From Gemmatimonadales bacterium (lineage in GTDB: Bacteria; Gemmatimonadota; Gemmatimonadetes; Gemmatimonadales; GWC2-71-9): a stretch of DNA of 64,000 bases. Under the pieces are notes generated by a model, which was not told the DNA's origin, did no database searches, and saw only the letters and a program-made list of their open reading frames with translations. The stretch is taken from assembly GCA_037189525.1 (NCBI GenBank), contig JBBCJC010000003.1, forward strand, positions 416,001-480,000, read 5' to 3'. Positions 22,651-35,836 of this stretch are shown piece after piece (position 1 is the stretch's first letter; every line of letters begins with the position of its first letter). A program made the position numbers and the translations under genes.

Positions 22651-23205
22651 ATGCGAATTCGGACTTTCGCTCTGGCGCTCGGTGTCATGGTCACGGCTGC
22701 CTGCGGTAAAAAGGAGCCCGAGGTCATTCCGACGCCGACTCCCCCGCCCGCAAGCCCGACCCCGGCGCCGACGCCTCCTCCGCCGCCACCGCCGGCAACG
22801 GACGGTGATGCGGCAGCGGCTGCTGAGCATGCCGAAGTAACCCGCCTGCTGCAGCAGGTGATCTACTTCGAACTCGACAAAGATGAGATTCGGGCCGAGG
22901 ATCGGCCGGTGCTCGAGCAGAAGGCGGCGATTCTGCAAGCCAATCCGTCGTTGCGGATCCGGATTGCCGGACACGCCGACGAGCGCGGCTCCGACGAGTA
23001 CAACCTCGTTCTCGGCACCCGCCGCGCCACCTCGGCCAAGCGGTTCCTCGAGACCCGCGGCATCGACGGCAGCCGGATCGATATCATCTCGTACGGCGAA
23101 GAGCGGCCGGCCAACCCGGCGTCGAACGAAGGCGCCTGGGCCCAGAATCGTCGCGATGAGTTCGAAATCACGAGCGGCGGCGCCCGCCTGGTGAGACCGC
23201 GGTGA
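22651..23205 (+). CDS. pal: Peptidoglycan-associated lipoprotein
   Basis: Lipobox TAAC, IYFELD, GHADERGSDEYNLVLG, SYGEERP, AQNRR. Confidence 0.93.
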   Translation: MRIRTFALALGVMVTAACGKKEPEVIPTPTPPPASPTPAPTPPPPPPPATDGDAAAAAEHAEVTRLLQQVIYFELDKDEIRAEDRPVLEQKAAILQANPSLRIRIAGHADERGSDEYNLVLGTRRATSAKRFLETRGIDGSRIDIISYGEERPANPASNEGAWAQNRRDEFEITSGGARLVRPR

Positions 23206-23981
23206 ACCGACTGTTGCTGGTGGCCCTCGCGGCCGGCCTGACCGCGGGATGCGCCACCAAAGGCTCAGTGCGCCAGGTCGAGACGCAGGTACTGGTGCTC
23301 CGCGCAGAGACGGCGCGCCAGGACTCGGTGCGGGCTGCGGAGCTGGCGCGCATCATTCGCCTCCAGCAACAGGCCATCGATTCACTCAACGCGTCACGTC
23401 AGGCCATCCGGGTGCTGGAGGCCCGGGTAGGCAGTGACCTGACCGACGTCCAGCGTCAGCTGCTGCAGATTCAGGAGTTGTCGGGCCAGAGTCAGCGGCA
23501 GCTGTCGCTCCTCAAGGCGCAGCTGGATGCCCGTGCCGAGGCGCAGTCGCTGGGGCCGGTAGATTCGACCCGCCCGGTCGATTCGGCGGCCCCGCCGCCC
23601 GCGGCCTCGGCCGAGCAGATGTATGTCGGCGCATTGCAGCAGTATCAGCGGGGAAGTCCGGGCGTGGCCCGCCGGGCGTTCCTCGAATTCCTGCAGCAGT
23701 ATCCGACCCATCCGAACGTGCCGGATGCGATGTACTGGGTGGCGGAATCGTTCGAGGCCGAGTTGCCGGATACGGCTATTGCGCGGTTCCAGCAGCTCCA
23801 TGCGAAGTTCCCCCAGTCCCGGCGCTCACCGACCGCGTTGTACAAGATCGGTTACGTGCTCGAGACGGTAAAGAAATCGCCGGCCCAGGCTCGGGCGGCG
23901 TACCAGCGGCTGGTGACCGAGTATCCTCGTTCGGAAGATGCCGACTTGGCCAGGGCGCGACTCGAGAGCCTCAAACCCTAG
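23202..23981 (+). CDS. cpoB: Tol-Pal associated CpoB/YbgF (coiled coil plus TPR, lipoprotein)
   Basis: LTAGC, coiled coil, FLQQYP...PDAMYW, PTALYKIG, LVTEYPRS; directly after pal. Confidence 0.85.
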   Translation: MNRLLLVALAAGLTAGCATKGSVRQVETQVLVLRAETARQDSVRAAELARIIRLQQQAIDSLNASRQAIRVLEARVGSDLTDVQRQLLQIQELSGQSQRQLSLLKAQLDARAEAQSLGPVDSTRPVDSAAPPPAASAEQMYVGALQQYQRGSPGVARRAFLEFLQQYPTHPNVPDAMYWVAESFEAELPDTAIARFQQLHAKFPQSRRSPTALYKIGYVLETVKKSPAQARAAYQRLVTEYPRSEDADLARARLESLKP

Positions 23982-23996: not shown

Positions 23997-26900
23997 ATGG
24001 CGCGGTCCAGTGGAGAAATGCCGTTCCTCGATCATCTCGAGGAACTCCGATCGCGATTGCTCAAGGCGGTTCTCGCCCTGGTCATCGCGATCGGTATCGG
24101 CATATGGGTAGTCGACCATTTTCAGCTGGTCGACATCCTGCAGCGCCCCATCCTTCCCCTGCTCGAGGGACGCCATCTCGTCATTCAGAGCCCGACCGAG
24201 CAGTTCATGATCCTGCTCAAACTTGGCTTCATCGTCGGGCTGGTGCTCGCGTCTCCCGTCATCATCTGGCAAATCTGGGCCTTCCTGTCGCCGGCCCTCT
24301 ACTCGCGTGAAAAAAAGGCCATCGTTCCGGCCCTGTTCGTCGGCGTGGCGCTCTTCATCACCGGGGCCACCCTGAGCTTTATCTACATCGTGCCCCAGGC
24401 TCTGCGCGTGCTGCTCGGCATGGGGCCTGGCACCTTCGAGATGCTGATCACCTGGCGTTCCTACTTTGCCTTCGTGATGCAGGTGGTGCTGGCGATGGGG
24501 CTCTCGGCCGAGTTACCGCTGCTCATCATCATGCTGGCGGTGCTCGGCGTGGTCACACCGTCGATGCTGGGCCGGTTCCGGCGCTTTGCGATCGTGCTCT
24601 CCTTTGCCGGCGGGGCCATCCTGTCACCGGGTGGGGATGTCTTCTCGATGGTGCTGATGACGGCGCCGTTGATCGTGCTGTACGAGGTCGGCTATCTCGG
24701 AGCCTGGATCGTTCACAAGCGGCGGACCCGGGCGGCGGCCGCCGCGGCGTCGGCCGCGATGTTCGTCTGGTTCCTCCTGCCGGCGCCGTTGGAAGCGCAG
24801 CAACCGCCTCCACCTCCGCCCCGACAGGCCCAGGACACTACCCGGCGGCAGGCAGGCGACTCGGCCGCCGCCAAGCGCATGGGACTCCCGTCGGCGCCGA
24901 AGCGGTCGTTTCCGGCGGCGGATTCGCTGTTGCTCGACCTGCAGGAACTCGAGGGATACGAGATTACCCGGTACCGGGCGGACACGGCGCAGGTCAGCCC
25001 GCGGGACAAGGCGGTTCAGCTGGGCGGCAACGCGATGACCGAGCGCACCGACGCAGTGCTCGAGGCGGATCGCATCTTCTACCGCGAGGGCGATTGCCGT
25101 TTCGAGGCGCAGGGCGAGCCGCATCTCTTCCAGCAGGGTACCGTGGTGGTCGGTCGCACCGTGTTGTACAACACCTGTATCGAGCGCGGACTGGTACAGG
25201 ACGGCCGGACCAGCTTCCCGCAACAGGGAGCCAACTGGATCGTCAGCGGTCACATCGCGATGGACTCGACCGCCAGGCGCGTCTTTGCCAGCGCGCGCGA
25301 AATCACCAGCTGCGATCTGCCCGATTCGCACTATCACTTCCGATCCAAGGAACTGCGCTGGGTCGGAGGCTCGACCATGGTGGCGCGTCCAGCCGTGCTC
25401 TACATCCGCGATGTGCCGATTGCCTGGGTGCCGTTTCTCTTTCAGGACACCAAGCGGGGCCGTCGCTCGGGGATTCTGATTCCCGAACTCGGCTTCAACG
25501 ATATCGTGCGCCCGAGTCGCAACTACAACCGCACGGTGAAGAACCTCGGATACTATTGGGCGGCGAGCGAAAAGGTTGACCTACTCGCCCGCTTCGACTG
25601 GTACTCGAATCGGTACATCGAGTTCGGTGTCGAAGGGCAGTATCGCTGGATCGATCAGTTCATGCGCGGCGCGGTGAGCTTTTCCCGGGCGCAGGAAATC
25701 GGCGGCTCGACCAACACGCGTGTCGTCTGGAATCACAACCAGACCTTCAGTGTCACGACCAAACTGAACGTCAGTCTCGACTACTCGACCAACTCGTCGA
25801 TCATCCGGCGGAACTCGATCGATCCGCGGATGACCACCCAGCAGATCCGAAGTTCCGCCAACCTGAATCGCCAGTTCAGTTGGGGCAACATGGCACTCGG
25901 TGGTACCCGAACACAGAATGTCACGGACGGCAGCGGCCGGATGACGGCGCCCAGCCTAACGCTGTCGCCCAAGCCGATCGACTTCGGCTCGGCGGTAACC
26001 TGGTCGCCGGACATCAATTTCACCAACGACCTCGCCTTCAAGCAGCCGATGCCGTCGGTGCTCGTGCCGCGGGGACCCGGCGGAATCGTCGATACGCTGG
26101 CAGTAACCGGCGGGAGCCGATTGAGCCGGTTCAGTATGAACACGCCGCTCCGCATCGGCAGCTTTCAGTGGACCAACAGCGTCAGTCTGATCGACAGCGA
26201 CTCGACCGGGCTTCGTGAGGAACTGATCACGGTTCCGAATGAGAGTACAGAAGACCCGACCGACTCGGTCACCATCCGCCGGGTGCGCTCCGGTGGGTAC
26301 GGCAGCGAGTTCGATTGGAACACCGGGATCAACTTGCCGATTCTCTTCCGCACCTCGTGGAAGATCACGCCGACGCTGGGGATCACCAACACGACGTCTC
26401 AGGCGCCGTTCGCGGTGCGCAATGCGCGCACGGCGGGCGAGTACGTCCGCCAGGGCAAACGGTTCCAGTTCGGTCTGTCGGCCGCGCCGACGTTCTACGG
26501 ATTTTTCCCGGGCATCGGGCCGTTGGACCGAATTCGTCACACCGTGTCGCCGTCGATCAGCTACAACTATAGCCCGGCGGCGGACATCCCGATCGAGTTT
26601 GCCCGCGCCATCACGCCGGTCGGGCAGCCGCTGGTGCTGCGCAGCATCCCGACCCAGTCGATCAGCCTGACGCTGAACCAGAATTTCGAGGCCAAGACCA
26701 AGCGGCCGGCGGGTGACACGACCGATACGCGCGTCCGGAAGATCCGCCTGCTGAGCATCAGCACCAGCGGTCTCGCCTACGATCTCGAGAAGGCCAAGTT
26801 GCCGGGCCGGACCGGCTGGTCGTCGCCGACGCTGAGCAACTCGATCATGAGCGATCTGGTGCCGGGGCTCAACCTGTCGATGACGCACGATCTCTTTGCC

Positions 26901-27530
26901 GGGGCGTTCGATCCCGCGACGGGCCGGGTAGGGGCGTTCGACAGCAGCACCGCGCGATTCAGCCCGTATCTGTCGGGGGTGACCGCCAGCTTCTCGCTGA
27001 CCGACGGCACTTTCCGGTCGATCGGTCGCTTGCTTGGCTTGGTTTCGGACGACGATCCGCCGGAGCAGCAGCAGCGCCAGGCGTCCGTTCCCGGGGCGCC
27101 CACCACGGTGCCCGGGCAACCGCAGCAGCAGTTCGGCATGATGGATGACATGCGGCGGGGGACGGGCTTTACCAGCAACCAAAACTTCGTGCGCGGACAG
27201 CGGGGCTTCAACGCCAGCGTCAACTACACCTTGAACCGGACTCGTCCGATTCCGGGGGTGGCGGAGGTGCCGAGCCGCAGCAATCTGTCGCTCAACACGA
27301 GCTTTGCGCCGACGCAGTTCTGGCAGGTGAGTTGGAACACGCAGTACGACGTGACCAATCGGACCTTCGAGGCGCAGCAGGTCAATCTGACCCGCGATCT
27401 CCACGACTGGCGGGCCACCTTCTCGTTCCTCCGGTCGCCCAACGGGAACTTCTCGTTCTCGTTCCTGATCACCCTGATCGACCTGCCCGATCTCAAGTTC
27501 GACTACCGCCAGAGCTCGATTCAGCCCTGA
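23997..27530 (+). CDS. tatC: Fusion ORF: twin-arginine translocase TatC (aa ~1-243), internal signal-like linker, then LptD-like LPS-assembly beta-barrel (aa ~268-1177)
   Basis: TatC: MPFLDHLEELRSRL, WQIWAFLSPALYSREK, ELP, RRFAIV, SPGGD, LYEVG. LptD: ITSCDLPDSHY, PAVLYIRDVPIAWVP, RRSGILIP, LGYYWA, C-terminal RDLHDW...DLKFDY. One uninterrupted frame. Confidence 0.85.
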   Translation: MARSSGEMPFLDHLEELRSRLLKAVLALVIAIGIGIWVVDHFQLVDILQRPILPLLEGRHLVIQSPTEQFMILLKLGFIVGLVLASPVIIWQIWAFLSPALYSREKKAIVPALFVGVALFITGATLSFIYIVPQALRVLLGMGPGTFEMLITWRSYFAFVMQVVLAMGLSAELPLLIIMLAVLGVVTPSMLGRFRRFAIVLSFAGGAILSPGGDVFSMVLMTAPLIVLYEVGYLGAWIVHKRRTRAAAAAASAAMFVWFLLPAPLEAQQPPPPPPRQAQDTTRRQAGDSAAAKRMGLPSAPKRSFPAADSLLLDLQELEGYEITRYRADTAQVSPRDKAVQLGGNAMTERTDAVLEADRIFYREGDCRFEAQGEPHLFQQGTVVVGRTVLYNTCIERGLVQDGRTSFPQQGANWIVSGHIAMDSTARRVFASAREITSCDLPDSHYHFRSKELRWVGGSTMVARPAVLYIRDVPIAWVPFLFQDTKRGRRSGILIPELGFNDIVRPSRNYNRTVKNLGYYWAASEKVDLLARFDWYSNRYIEFGVEGQYRWIDQFMRGAVSFSRAQEIGGSTNTRVVWNHNQTFSVTTKLNVSLDYSTNSSIIRRNSIDPRMTTQQIRSSANLNRQFSWGNMALGGTRTQNVTDGSGRMTAPSLTLSPKPIDFGSAVTWSPDINFTNDLAFKQPMPSVLVPRGPGGIVDTLAVTGGSRLSRFSMNTPLRIGSFQWTNSVSLIDSDSTGLREELITVPNESTEDPTDSVTIRRVRSGGYGSEFDWNTGINLPILFRTSWKITPTLGITNTTSQAPFAVRNARTAGEYVRQGKRFQFGLSAAPTFYGFFPGIGPLDRIRHTVSPSISYNYSPAADIPIEFARAITPVGQPLVLRSIPTQSISLTLNQNFEAKTKRPAGDTTDTRVRKIRLLSISTSGLAYDLEKAKLPGRTGWSSPTLSNSIMSDLVPGLNLSMTHDLFAGAFDPATGRVGAFDSSTARFSPYLSGVTASFSLTDGTFRSIGRLLGLVSDDDPPEQQQRQASVPGAPTTVPGQPQQQFGMMDDMRRGTGFTSNQNFVRGQRGFNASVNYTLNRTRPIPGVAEVPSRSNLSLNTSFAPTQFWQVSWNTQYDVTNRTFEAQQVNLTRDLHDWRATFSFLRSPNGNFSFSFLITLIDLPDLKFDYRQSSIQP

Positions 27531-27728: not shown

Positions 27729-29927
27729 ATGAATCTCGATAAGCTCAAAGAATCCGCGCGGAAGTACGAGCAAAACGGCCAGTGGCGCCAAGCCATTGAC
27801 GTTTACAAGAAGGCATTGCGCGAATTCGAAGAGTCGGGCGAGGGAGTCCTGGACCCGTCGCTGTACAATCGCATCGGCGATCTCGAGATGCGGGTCAACG
27901 ACACCAGCGCGGCCATCCGGGCCTACGAGCAGGCCTCCGATCTCTACACCGAGCAGGGTTTCTTCAACAACGCCATCGCGCTCTGCAGTAAGATCCTGCG
28001 TGTCAATCCGGGCCGCACCGCAACCTACCTCCGCCTGGCTCAGCTCAACGCCCGCAAGAACTTCGTCGGCGATGCGCGGAAGAATCTGACCGAATACATC
28101 GAACGGATGACGGCGCTGCATCACCCCGCTGAGGCCGTCGACGCCGTCAGGATCTTCGTCGGGCAGTGCGCCGAGAATCCTGATATCCGGGCCATGCTGG
28201 TGGAGTTGCTGCGAGGCGGCTCGTTCGATCCGTCGATGCGGGAGCCGTTCGACCAGCTGATTCGTGAGCTGGAACGCCAGGACACCCCGGACGAGGACGA
28301 CGCGGGCGACGGAGAGGTCGCGGTCGACACCGATGCCGCGCGCCGCGTGGACGCCGCCTCCGGGCTGGTCTTTCTGGATCTGGAGGGCGGCCAGGCACGG
28401 GACACGGGCTACGTCAGTCCGGTCGAGGGACTCGAAGTCATCCACCAGGAGCAGGAGCCCGAAGAGCCCTGGCGCCAGGATACCGACCGCGTCGACGGCT
28501 TCGAGTACACCGGTCTCGACCCGGTTGATACCGAGATCGGGGCTTCGGTCGAGTTCGTGACCGAATCGGCCTTCGAGGTGGGTGAGCCGCTCGATCTCGA
28601 AGGGGAGGACGCCGACCCGCTCGATATCGATTCGTATCCGAGCGTCGAGCTGGACGAGGCATTGGCCGCAGCCAGCGGGGATTCCGAGGTGGAGTCCCTC
28701 GACGAAATCGCCCTCACTCCGACCGCCGGACTCGAGGTGCTCGAGCCGATCGATCTGGAGACGACTCCCGAGGTCGAGTTGCCGCTCGAAGAGGGCGAGG
28801 CGCTGGCGGTCGAGGTGGATCTGGACCTCGACACCGACGAACCGCCGGAAGCAGCCGGCGACCTCGTCTTTCTGGTCGAGAGCGACGACGTGGCAGCGCC
28901 AGCTGCGCAGGAGACGTCGCGGACGGATGGGCTGTCGTTCATCTCGGATGAAGTCGATGAGCCAGAGGCCGAAGCGGAGGCCGAACCGGCTCGGGATCTG
29001 GCGCAATTTGCCGAGGAGCAGGCCCGGGTCTTGTTGACGGTCGGCGACCGTACGGCTGGCATGGCGGCGCTCGACGAAGCGCTCCGCCAGTACGAGGGAT
29101 CGGCGCGGCTGGCCGAAGCGCTCCGGGTGGCCGATGAGTTGATCCGGTTCGAACCGGATGCGATCTATCGTTACCAGAAGCGGGTCGAGATCGCCTACCG
29201 GGCGGGAGACCGCGGCGCCATGCTCGATTCGTATCTGGGCCTGGCCGATGCGCTGGCGCGGAGCGGGGGGCTCGAGCACGCGGTCACCGTCTATCGCCGG
29301 GTGCTCGAACACGATGCCGACAACGTGACGGCGCGCACGGCGCTGATCCGCCTGGAAGCTGCGCTGGCGCCTCCACCGCCGCCGCCTCCGCCCGCCGCAT
29401 CGTTCGTCGATCTGGGCAGCCTGATCCTCGATGAGCCGGCGGTTCGGGACACCCGGATGCGGGTCGACCAGGGCGCGCCGATCGAGAACGAGGACGAGGC
29501 GTTTCACGAGGCGCTGGCCCAGTTCAAGCGCGGTATCGACGAGAACATCGACGCCGAGGACTTCCAGGCGCACTATGACCTGGGCATTGCCTTCAAGGAA
29601 ATGGGGCTGCTCGACGAGGCGATTGCGCAGTTCCAGAAGGCGCTGCGGTCGCCGGATGGCCGCCTCAAGACCTCGGAACAGCTGGGCATTGCCTTCTACG
29701 ACAAATCGCGCTTCGCGATCGCCGAAGCCGTGCTGCGCAGGGCCATCGAGAGCCTGCCGGGCGGCGACGAGGAAAAGATCGGTTCGATCTACTGGCTCGC
29801 GCGGTCACTCGAGGCGCAGCGGCGTTTCGAAGAAGCGCTCCGATTCTATGAACGGGTCCTGGCCGTCGACATCCGCTTCCTGGATGTGGGTGACCGGGTC
29901 CACCGCCTGACTTCGGGCGCCTCATGA
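27729..29927 (+). CDS. TPR protein with long acidic linker and C-terminal TPR cluster
   Basis: N-terminal TPRs, D/E-rich middle, C-terminal AHYDLGIAFKEMGLLDEAIAQFQKA and following TPRs. Confidence 0.8.
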   Translation: MNLDKLKESARKYEQNGQWRQAIDVYKKALREFEESGEGVLDPSLYNRIGDLEMRVNDTSAAIRAYEQASDLYTEQGFFNNAIALCSKILRVNPGRTATYLRLAQLNARKNFVGDARKNLTEYIERMTALHHPAEAVDAVRIFVGQCAENPDIRAMLVELLRGGSFDPSMREPFDQLIRELERQDTPDEDDAGDGEVAVDTDAARRVDAASGLVFLDLEGGQARDTGYVSPVEGLEVIHQEQEPEEPWRQDTDRVDGFEYTGLDPVDTEIGASVEFVTESAFEVGEPLDLEGEDADPLDIDSYPSVELDEALAAASGDSEVESLDEIALTPTAGLEVLEPIDLETTPEVELPLEEGEALAVEVDLDLDTDEPPEAAGDLVFLVESDDVAAPAAQETSRTDGLSFISDEVDEPEAEAEAEPARDLAQFAEEQARVLLTVGDRTAGMAALDEALRQYEGSARLAEALRVADELIRFEPDAIYRYQKRVEIAYRAGDRGAMLDSYLGLADALARSGGLEHAVTVYRRVLEHDADNVTARTALIRLEAALAPPPPPPPPAASFVDLGSLILDEPAVRDTRMRVDQGAPIENEDEAFHEALAQFKRGIDENIDAEDFQAHYDLGIAFKEMGLLDEAIAQFQKALRSPDGRLKTSEQLGIAFYDKSRFAIAEAVLRRAIESLPGGDEEKIGSIYWLARSLEAQRRFEEALRFYERVLAVDIRFLDVGDRVHRLTSGAS

Positions 29928-30918: not shown

Positions 30919-31203
30919 ATGGCAGGAGGAGGTGCGCGCGGCCCCCGTCGGCCCAGATTCTACGCTGCGGTACTCACCACCGGGTTCATGCTGGGTGGAT
31001 TCCTGCAGGGTTTTCTGTCGAAGTTCCTGCCCGACAGCCCCGCCAAGGACGTCTTTACCAGCGCGTGGCGTGGCGAATTCGGACCTGTCAAAGTAGATCT
31101 CATGGTTGTAGACTTTACCCTGGGACCGCTCGGCGTCGAGGTATCCGTGCTGAGTCTGTTCGGGGTCCTGATCGCGTACATGATTGCGCGATCGCTCTTT
31201 TAG
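30919..31203 (+). CDS. Small membrane protein (DUF4321-like)
   Basis: Two hydrophobic segments around a [11 protein letters not shown] hairpin; GGAGG RBS. Confidence 0.6.
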
Positions 31204-31216
31204 TAGGAGCCCTGGT

Positions 31217-31471
31217 ATGATCGGGAATCTGGGTTTTGGCGAGATTCTGGTCCTCGCCGTCATCGTACTGCTCGTGTTCGGCGCGAAGCGCCTGCCGGAA
31301 ATTGGCCAGTCGCTCGGCAAGGGTATTCGGGAGTTCAAGAAGAGCTTCTCGGAAATCGGCGACAACGTGACCAGCGGTCTGAACGAGCCGCCGTCATCCA
31401 ATGCGCGCCAGATCGACTCGGCGCACTCCCAGGCCCCCACTTCGAGCGAGCCGAAGCGGCTGTCGCAGTAA
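31217..31471 (+). CDS. tatA: Twin-arginine translocase TatA/TatE
   Basis: [42 protein letters not shown]. Confidence 0.93.
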
Positions 31472-33631: not shown

Positions 33632-35836
33632 ATGGCGCCATCCCGCGAAATCGAGAAACTGCAGCGCCGATGGCAGGAGAACCCATTGGGGCTCACCTTC
33701 GCCCCTCTGGCGGAGGCGTATCGTAAGGAAGGGATGTACGAGGACGCGTTGGAGCTGCTCAGCATCGGGCTGGCGCAGCATCCCAACTATGTCCCCGCGC
33801 ACATCGTCCGCGGTCGATGCTATGTCGACACCCATACGGACACGGCAGCGGAAGAAGCCTTCCAGCGGGTTACCGAACTCGATCCCGAAAATGTCATTGC
33901 GCTGAAGGGGCTCGCGGACCTGGCGGAAAAGGGCGGACGCTTTGACGAGGCGATTGCCCGGCTGGAGCGCTTGCTGGAGTTCGACCGGAGCAACGACGAC
34001 GCGCGCGCTCAGGCCGACCGGCTTCGGGCCGCGTTGGCGCCGGTGGTCGAAACTCCGGTTGCTCCGCCGGAACCCGCACCGGCGCCGATCGAGGCCGAAC
34101 TGCCCGAGCCGACGATTCCGGAGTTCCCGCGGGTCGAGGCCGACGCCGTGCCCGATGCGGAGCCTGCGCTCGACGAGCCGGATCCGCTGGTCGACCAGGC
34201 GCGTGCGGCGGTGGTGGACATCAGTGCCGCCGACGTCGAGGTCATCACCTATCGGCCGCTCGAGTTGGTCGCCTCGGCCGATTCGGAGTATCAGCTGGCC
34301 GACGCTGCTGCGGATCTGGTGCCGCCGCCGTCGGAGGATCTTACCGCCGCTTCAGGACTGGCGGATTCGGTTACGGAGCAGGCAGATGCCGTTGCGGAGC
34401 GAGCGGATGGTGCTGCGGATCAGATCGGCCTTGCCGGGGATCGGAATGCCGTTGCTGCGGAACAAGCCGACCCCAGTGTGGAGCAGGTAGATCCTGTTGC
34501 GGATCAGGGTAGTGTCGTTGCGGACCAGGCTGATGGCGCGGTGGGGCAGGATGGTCTCGCTGCAGGGCAGAATGGTCCCGTTGCGGAGCAGGCTGACCTC
34601 GTGGCAGAGCAGATTGACGGGGGCGTGGGACCGGATAGCTCTGTTGCCGAGCGGGTTGATTTCGTTGCGGAGCAGGTCGATCGCGGCGGGGAGGGTGTAG
34701 ATCTCGTTGCGGAGCAGGTTGGGGTTGTGGCGGAGCAGATTGATCGCGGCGCGGAACAGGTAGATCCCGTCGTCGACCAGGCCGCTCTCGATGCGGGGCA
34801 CGTGAATCCCCTTGCAGGGCAGGTTGATCTCGCTACGGAGCGGGAGGATGCTGCTGCTGAACACCCTGGCCCTACTGGGGAGCGTGAGAGCACTGCTACG
34901 GAACTGCCCAGTCTTGTTGCAGACCAGGGCGACCGGACCGGGGAACAGACAGGTCCTGTGGCGGATCTGGTCGGCGGGCCGGTCACCGAAACCGTTTCTG
35001 CGGTGAGTGAGCCAGTCCCGCCGGCGATTGCCACCACCGATAGCCCGATCGGGGATGGCTCGGTCGCAACCGACTCTCCAGCCGGGGCGTTTGCTCAGGC
35101 GGAGTCGGCGGATGGCTCGGATGTCGCAGCTGTCGACGAAGTAGTTGCGGAGCTTCCGGCGGTCGCATCTCTATCTGCGACGCCTGCCGATCTCGAGACC
35201 GATGCATCGATCGCCCCCGAGCCGGTACTGCCGGCCGAGGCCGCGTACATCGAAGCCGACGAACTCGACGAGACCGCCTTCGACGTCGATGCGCTCGATC
35301 CGGAACGCGACGATGCCGAAGCAGTTGCCGGCGTCGAGGCGGAGCCCGATCTCGTCGTGACCGAAACGATGGCCGAGCTCTTCATGCGGCAGGGTCACCG
35401 TACCCTGGCGCTGGCCGTGTATACGCAGCTTTCGGAGCGCGACGGAGACAATCCGCGGATTCGGGGCGCGATCGAGCAGTTGCAGGCCGAGTTGCGGCCC
35501 GCGTCGAGCGTGGGTATTCCGGCGTACGCGGCGGTCCTGACGGGTGGCCAGTCGGTGCGCGCCTTCTTCGAGCACCTGCTGGCGGCCACTCGGCCGGTTG
35601 CTCCGGATCGCCAGGCCACGGGGTTGTCGCTCGGAGCGGTCTTCGGAGAAGAGCGGGCGACACCAGCCACGTCCGCGCCCGCCGAGGATCGCGGTCCGAG
35701 TTACGACGAGTTCTTTGCCGAGGAGCAGCCGCCTGCGGAGCTTCCCAAGCGGCCCGACCGTGAAGGGGCGGCGGTCGATGCGGCCGCCGAAGATCTCGAG
35801 CACTTCACCTCCTGGCTCAAGGGGCTCAAGCGCTGA
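33632..35836 (+). CDS. TPR protein with long acidic, repeat-containing linker
   Basis: N-terminal TPRs ([22 protein letters not shown]), acidic middle, [14 protein letters not shown] helix, C-terminal [14 protein letters not shown]. Confidence 0.8.
34370..34978 (+). repeat. Intragenic degenerate tandem repeat, 29 units of 21 bp (7 aa, consensus about VAEQxDx)
   Basis: Units such as GTTGCGGAGCAGGCTGACCTC and GTTGCGGAGCAGGTCGATCGC stay in exact 21-nt register from 34370 to the unit starting at 34958. Confidence 0.8.

Follow-up and report, generated by a model that had tools for sequence, protein, structure and literature searches.

The closest precedent for the gene described here is FbcH of Bradyrhizobium japonicum, a cytochrome b/c1 precursor that, as Thony-Meyer, James and Hennecke reportedly found in 1991, is encoded by one gene and cut after translation into two proteins, and that brings together a polytopic inner-membrane protein, an internal signal-like spacer and an exported partner. 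Natural fusions of TatC described in a 2026 review of twin-arginine translocation (Tat) include the haloarchaeal TatC-TatC tandems (PMC13673990). In other Gemmatimonadota, tatC and lptD (of the LptD_2 type) are adjacent, separate genes, which share with the locus reported here the order behind cpoB, the two proteins, the signal peptide of LptD and the cleavage site in front of a Gln. Here we analysed a stretch of 64,000 nucleotides from a Gemmatimonadales bacterium (contig JBBCJC010000003.1, positions 416,001 to 480,000), hereafter the window, in which both proteins are encoded by one plus-strand reading frame (23997-27530; 1177 codons, zero stops). With a probability of about 0.8, we consider its product to be a two-protein precursor, or polyprotein, that is predicted from its sequence to be cut by signal peptidase I after Ala267.

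The fusion is real and conserved. A homologue search with the whole protein, the counts of which rest on 120 listed homologues, found both domains in 118 of them, down to 50% identity, while the other two are LptD alone; when the TatC part served as query against proteins 647-2060 residues long, 726 matches came up, and all 120 listed ones have both domains. From two genome searches (41 and 151 genomes) 137 loci were cut out, 91 from the 96 genomes sampled in the window's family (window included) and 46 from the 82 sampled in other families. In the window's family, 80 of the 91 loci are fused, spread over 32 genera, six have split, adjacent genes, three are without tatC at the locus and two lie at contig ends; in the other families two loci are fused, 42 are split and two lie at contig ends. 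The 80 fused loci include the unpublished genome G085, on which no claim rests. The earlier note on this DNA had suggested looking for homologues with this architecture and had named uniformly separate genes in close relatives as a finding that would speak against it; the counts above supply the former and contradict the latter. In addition, three other studies supplied contigs (not reads) that span the joint ungapped (X2, 24520-26395; X6, 24263-25112; X9, 24486-24926), and six substitutions near the joint, among the 40 of 436 substitutions that are listed, create no stop.

The TatC half is complete. Residues 12-224 match Pfam TatC (PF00902) along the entire profile (1-208 of 208; 197.5 bits, E 3e-58), TIGR00945 is passed with 187.6 bits against a cut-off of 132.7, and six TatC helices are present in an AlphaFold model of the fusion protein (88-row alignment; mean predicted local distance difference test score, pLDDT, 75.7; predicted template modelling score 0.51). 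In Foldseek, the TatC structures 4HTS, 4B4A and 9DZZ were found at template modelling scores by target of 0.79-0.85, ranked behind LptD. The residues F96, E105, E172, D214 and E230 are kept, and F96 and E105 correspond in the 4B4A alignment to E. coli F94 and E103, which bind the twin-arginine according to the text of the Tat review (PMC13673990). Both occur in every one of the 82 fused and 48 split loci, and the key residues of TatC are equally well kept in fused and split genes. The fused TatC is the sole TatC match in its genome and the only TatC in 29 of the 31 fused genomes tested; one tatA and five Tat-signal matches (TIGR01409) over the cut-off complete the set.

Behind TatC, LptD_2 (PF19838) is matched with 130.9 bits against a cut-off of 22.5 (E 7e-38; best stretch 462-661), and the proteobacterial LptD models PF04453 and NF002997 are not matched by the fusion protein. 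The AlphaFold model has a beta-rich N-domain (about residues 325-500) followed by a long run of barrel strands (512-1160), with a strand count of about 26-28 and low confidence at residues 457-508. The top Foldseek matches are all LptD (E 9e-23), yet they superimpose at a root-mean-square deviation of 10-13 Å and 10-13% identity. Like the TatC part, this part is the only match of its kind in the genome, which answers the earlier question whether it holds a further tatC or lptD, and the lipopolysaccharide (LPS) pathway genes lptF/G and lpxC are present. Pfam, TIGR00945, the model and Foldseek thus bear out that the stop-free frame holds a full TatC and then an LptD-like protein, as first proposed from the letters alone, and the motifs SCD..HY, RRSGILIP and RDLHDW are all found in the translation.

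TatC helix 6 is followed by K241-R245, sixteen uncharged residues, P-A-P-L-E-A and Q268, so that residues 241-267 read as a complete predicted Sec signal peptide, with n-, h- and c-regions and L-E-A before the Gln, a feature that the earlier note had not named. We located the hydrophobic core of each joint, took the first Gln after it blind to the -1 and -3 residues, and then scored both, a pass being A/G/S at -1 plus a small or aliphatic residue at -3. The first Gln passes in 75 of the 82 fused loci, and the remaining seven have A/G at -1 of the next Gln; among the protein homologues, 153 of 163 joints pass at the first Gln, seven at the second and three at neither. Applied to the roughly called proteins of this genome, the same rule accepts 67 of 1528 membrane segments that lie internally (19 of 366 if at least two K/R stand ahead of the segment) and, at N-termini, 188 of 363 hydrophobic segments. 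The -1 residue is A/G/S in all 82 fused joints (Ala in 72), with a column entropy of 0.59 bits compared with 3.41 bits at -2, and joint length ranges from 32 to 71 residues among the fused loci with the frame always kept; therefore, it is the cut site that is maintained, and the remainder of the joint drifts.

In the fused loci the uncharged core is 12-22 residues long (median 16), as in signal peptides, and each of the 82 joints carries 3-9 basic residues; unfused TatC has the same basic patch behind helix 6, and in unfused relatives the signal peptide that LptD itself carries ends at the corresponding position before the Gln. From this Gln to a GLP motif, a Pro-rich segment measures a median of 39 residues (27-56, n=73) in fused loci of the window's family and 34-47 in seven of the nine unfused same-family loci scored sensibly; in the model, pLDDT is below 50 over residues 250-286. 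The genome encodes two signal peptidase I enzymes and one glutaminyl cyclase (PF05096, at G000:C2:1274226-1274924). In Bacteroidetes, substrates of signal peptidase I are characterised by a Gln at +1, according to a study whose main text does not name Gemmatimonadota (PMC5837995). Judging from the cyclase and from the share of N-terminal segments that end in small-x-small before Gln, a Bacteroidetes-like rule seems to apply in this genome as well. In two fused loci the joint is extended in frame between basic patch and core, by an acidic Gly/Pro-rich insertion in L068 (G069; 71-residue joint) and by a Pro-rich insertion in L114 (G096; 53 residues), which is as expected for a cytoplasmic loop.

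Based on this anatomy, we propose the following sequence of events. TatC would be made first and would enter the inner membrane during translation, its C-terminal end staying in the cytoplasm, which is the usual topology of TatC. The basic residues behind helix 6, together with the old core and c-region of LptD, would then act as an internal Sec signal peptide and thread the 910-residue LptD chain into the periplasm. A cut by signal peptidase I after Ala267 would yield a 29 kDa TatC and a 101 kDa LptD starting at Gln268, the TatC product keeping as its seventh segment the signal remnant, which may be trimmed at a later stage, and the new N-terminus of LptD probably being cyclised to pyroglutamate. 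The released LptD would proceed by way of the beta-barrel assembly machinery (BAM) to the outer membrane as usual. The frame, its two domains, the spread of the fusion, the layout of the signal peptide and the descent from a gene pair are shown by the sequences; translocation, cleavage and the fate of the remnant are what we infer from the joint and from the established rules of Sec and signal peptidase I. The suggestion of a polyprotein cut after membrane insertion is hence supported, with a retained Sec/signal peptidase I signal peptide as the likely mechanism.

Several observations weigh against this interpretation. LptE was not found with PF04390 in the 98% complete genome, although a divergent LptE may escape this profile, and the barrel is without C-terminal cysteines, the only ones being Cys 367, 394 and 439. 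In E. coli-type LptD, disulfides join the N-domain to the barrel end. Because LptE was not found and the barrel is without C-terminal Cys, canonical LptD function is not fully established, and LPS insertion is a predicted activity of this half. As to the joint, -3 is Leu in 38 of 82 cases including this one, which is less canonical than Ala, and under a strict definition of -3 the first Gln passes in only 39 of 82; moreover, the rule is our own heuristic, and the kin to which it was applied are not independent. Finally, a GTG, ATG or TTG, in most cases a Val codon, is found from the end of helix 6 onwards in 53 of the 82 fused loci, raw Shine-Dalgarno (SD) scores at this place are stronger than those of split loci (p = 0.004), and a conserved cleavage motif would be expected equally if LptD were started internally.

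Such internal in-frame initiation, with a separate start codon for LptD within TatC helix 6 or shortly behind it and a long product that is either a by-product or cut as well, survives best among the alternatives and is itself unlikely. Apart from the start-like codons just mentioned, M218 of this protein has an SD-like stretch (-7.0 kcal/mol), the fusion of G118 in family f2 has an ATG right before a complete signal peptide, and four genomes of family f6 seem to use CTG for lptD, so that odd starts exist in the phylum. However, the stretch from Glu230 to the hydrophobic core is free of ATG, GTG and TTG in this gene and in its two closest relatives, as it is in 16 of 82 fused loci (8 genera), and 28 of the 80 fused loci of the window's family (13 genera) have no start codon from offset +5. 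The one in-frame ATG of the joint, M255 (24759), is inside the core, and the two closest relatives read CTG and GTG there. Loci with a start near the end of helix 6 number 49, compared with 48.0 by synonymous shuffles, and the SD excess is gone against the same shuffles (start plus SD, 18 observed and 17.3 +/- 3.1 expected in 80 loci), a test with little power because even true tatC starts have weak SD scores (median -3.25). The GTG share of Val codons is 0.57 compared with 0.51 in the gene body (p = 0.2). In addition, TatC would still need to be cut, since it has no stop of its own. In-frame ATG, GTG and TTG codons are present further up, within helix 6, and starts at a helix-6 Met or at near-cognate codons are possible. 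The earlier statement that no plausible start precedes a complete signal peptide therefore holds for ATG, GTG and TTG from Glu230 to the core, and does not extend to helix 6, where such codons exist.

Harder to credit is the idea that some or all of the product stays uncut and spans the envelope, placing LPS insertion at Tat/Tol-Pal sites and making cleavage a regulated switch. We hold it to be very unlikely also in the form of a trans-envelope protein, a tether that the earlier note had envisaged as well, which is left uncleaved or partly cleaved and in which the seventh segment anchors the N-terminus of LptD to TatC, the barrel sits in the outer membrane and LPS insertion is tied to Tat sites beside the Tol-Pal genes. 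A single frame maintained over 32 genera, a flexible Pro-rich segment between anchor and jellyroll and the position of the gene behind tol-pal/cpoB would all suit such a tether, but within the joint tight conservation is confined to the cleavage motif, and the joint is modelled at low confidence. Two further findings speak against a tether, namely that fused LptD does not have a longer Pro-rich segment than unfused LptD and that the fusion has been undone about seven times; as re-splitting and loss of tatC from the locus occur, LptD needs no tether.

It is highly improbable that the retained signal remnant is a working seventh TatC helix that fills the helix-6 TatA/TatB site in place of a TatB. 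The genome has only one TatA/B gene, and a TatA/B site at helix 6 is described for E. coli TatC (PMC5577447), but single TatA/B matches are about as common among fused genomes (17 of 20) as among unfused ones (16 of 20), which gives no link to the fusion, and the seventh segment is without a conserved polar residue and modelled at low confidence. Export of LptD by the attached Tat machine, with the Arg cluster as an internal twin-arginine signal, is close to untenable: RR occurs in nearly all joints, and internal Tat signals in polytopic proteins are on record in the text of the Tat review (PMC13673990), yet none of the 163 joints matches [ST]RRxF[LIVM]. The same Arg patch is carried by unfused TatC, and the Tat-type internal signal of a class IV Tat substrate, S/T-R-R-x-F-L before the helix, was rejected for lack of this motif. 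Beta-barrels, furthermore, travel unfolded. An assembly or sequencing error that deleted a stop, for which one could cite the split genes in two same-genus genomes and four more of the family, is refuted by the 80 fused family loci, the 118 of 120 listed homologues and the gap-free contigs of three studies, and can virtually be dismissed.

In most of the 48 split loci, the start of lptD overlaps or abuts the tatC stop, usually with a four-base overlap. In a FastTree tree of TatC plus the N-terminal part of LptD, joint excluded, built for 133 of the 137 loci (four contig-edge loci omitted) with neither bootstrap nor approximately unbiased (AU) tests, the window's family forms one clade (support 1.0) in which unfused members are nested among fused ones. 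A minimum of 10 changes is needed, comprising one gain at the family base, two isolated gains in the sister family f2, re-splitting in four cases and loss of tatC from the locus in three, and this suggests that an overlapping tatC/lptD pair fused and that the fusion was then undone about seven times. At its origin, a translationally coupled pair probably lost the dispensable tail of TatC and the start of LptD. A need for the 1:1 synthesis that the earlier note had expected of a polyprotein is unsupported, since an overlap was present in the ancestral gene pair and tatC has left the locus in three genomes; nor do the data support a gain through fixed stoichiometry. The pattern fits a tolerated, near-neutral fusion that is made harmless by a ready-made cut site.

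Some individual loci deserve mention. In L061, L064 and L065 (G063, G094 and G066), lptD with its own signal peptide lies behind cpoB and tatC is elsewhere in the genome. Of the lone f2 fusions, whose relatives are split, L075 (G118) has kept an ATG ahead of the full signal peptide and L076 (G035) has kept the TatC tail, with a second tatC/tatA pair elsewhere; both could be a recent event or a sequence error. In L079, L080, L099 and L133 (f6), lptD has no ATG or GTG at the overlap, and a CTG at the -4 position overlaps the TGA stop; lying behind a purine-rich stretch, this CTG looks like the putative start of lptD. In L026 (G032), the lptD frame is without a signal peptide and a hydrophobic start lies in another frame, which suggests a frameshift or sequencing error.

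The features of the locus are collected in the table. A Pal-like OmpA gene precedes the cpoB/ybgF-like gene, and relatives show the same gene order. Two large tetratricopeptide repeat (TPR) proteins with long acidic low-complexity middles are encoded at 27729-29927 and 33632-35836 of the window, the latter with a run of short imperfect repeats.

Table. The tatC-lptD gene, its predicted parts and neighbouring genes (window positions).
Feature	Position	Strand	Remarks
tatC-lptD fused gene	23997..27530	+	1177 aa, precursor ~130 kDa
TatC, residues 1-240, six helices	23997..24716	+	Pfam, 4B4A alignment, conservation, model
Basic patch K241-R245, start of the TatC cytoplasmic tail and predicted n-region of the internal signal peptide	24717..24731	+	
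h-region A246-L261, predicted hydrophobic core of the internal signal peptide	24732..24779	+	
c-region P262-A267, ending L-E-A; predicted signal peptidase I cut A267/Q268 (24797/24798)	24780..24797	+	inferred
Pro/Gln-rich low-confidence N-terminal segment of mature LptD	24798..24878	+	unfused LptD has one too
LptD beta-jellyroll-like N-domain, about residues 325-500	24969..25496	+	Cys 367, 394, 439
LptD-like beta-barrel, about residues 512-1160	25530..27476	+	roughly 26-28 long strands (DSSP list count)
cpoB/ybgF-like TPR gene, directly upstream of the fusion gene	23202..23981	+	tol-pal cluster end
tatA	31184..31471	+	genome's only TatA/B/E family match

In the literature outside subscription journals and supplements we found no description of a TatC-LptD fusion; by term search, a 2013 TatC survey does not mention it in the text searched, and 'LptD' and 'Gemmatimonad' are absent from the main text of the 2026 Tat review (PMC13673990). 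If our interpretation is true, an entire family of bacteria produces both its sole Tat receptor and its sole LptD-like barrel as one chain for both membranes, and Sec export of an outer-membrane protein of 100 kDa can be restarted by an internal signal that follows a membrane protein with six helices. As databases name these proteins TatC only, LptD goes unnoticed in such genomes, and predictors of N-terminal signals would overlook the signal of LptD here. The fused, re-split and separated forms in close relatives represent a natural series on the fusion and parting of overlapping genes.

Compared with ordinary TatC, the fused protein keeps the full profile, the six helices and the Phe/Glu pair, whereas its C-terminal tail is swapped for a predicted signal peptide and LptD. 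With proteobacterial LptD (9KN3, 4Q35, 5IV9) the second half shares, in its model, a jellyroll-like N-domain and a large barrel, but it leaves PF04453 unmatched, has no C-terminal Cys and no LptE found with PF04390, and is made as the tail of TatC. Other Gemmatimonadota keep the TatC stop and the lptD start, mostly overlapping, while the fusion has lost both as well as the TatC tail. In viral envelope polyproteins, internal signals are reportedly also released by signal peptidase, there of the endoplasmic reticulum; that setting is eukaryotic and viral, whereas tatC-lptD joins two chromosomal bacterial housekeeping proteins. What the locus has in common with an FbcH-like polyprotein is one conserved frame for two normally separate proteins, an internal signal peptide with a signal peptidase I site by our own heuristic, and a topology that follows from that of TatC. 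FbcH joins two subunits of one complex in one membrane, in contrast to tatC-lptD, which joins unrelated pathways in two membranes, has a 910-residue beta-barrel as its exported half and is predicted to be cleaved; if this is true, bacterial polyproteins cut by signal peptidase would extend from one respiratory complex to unrelated core machines of the envelope.

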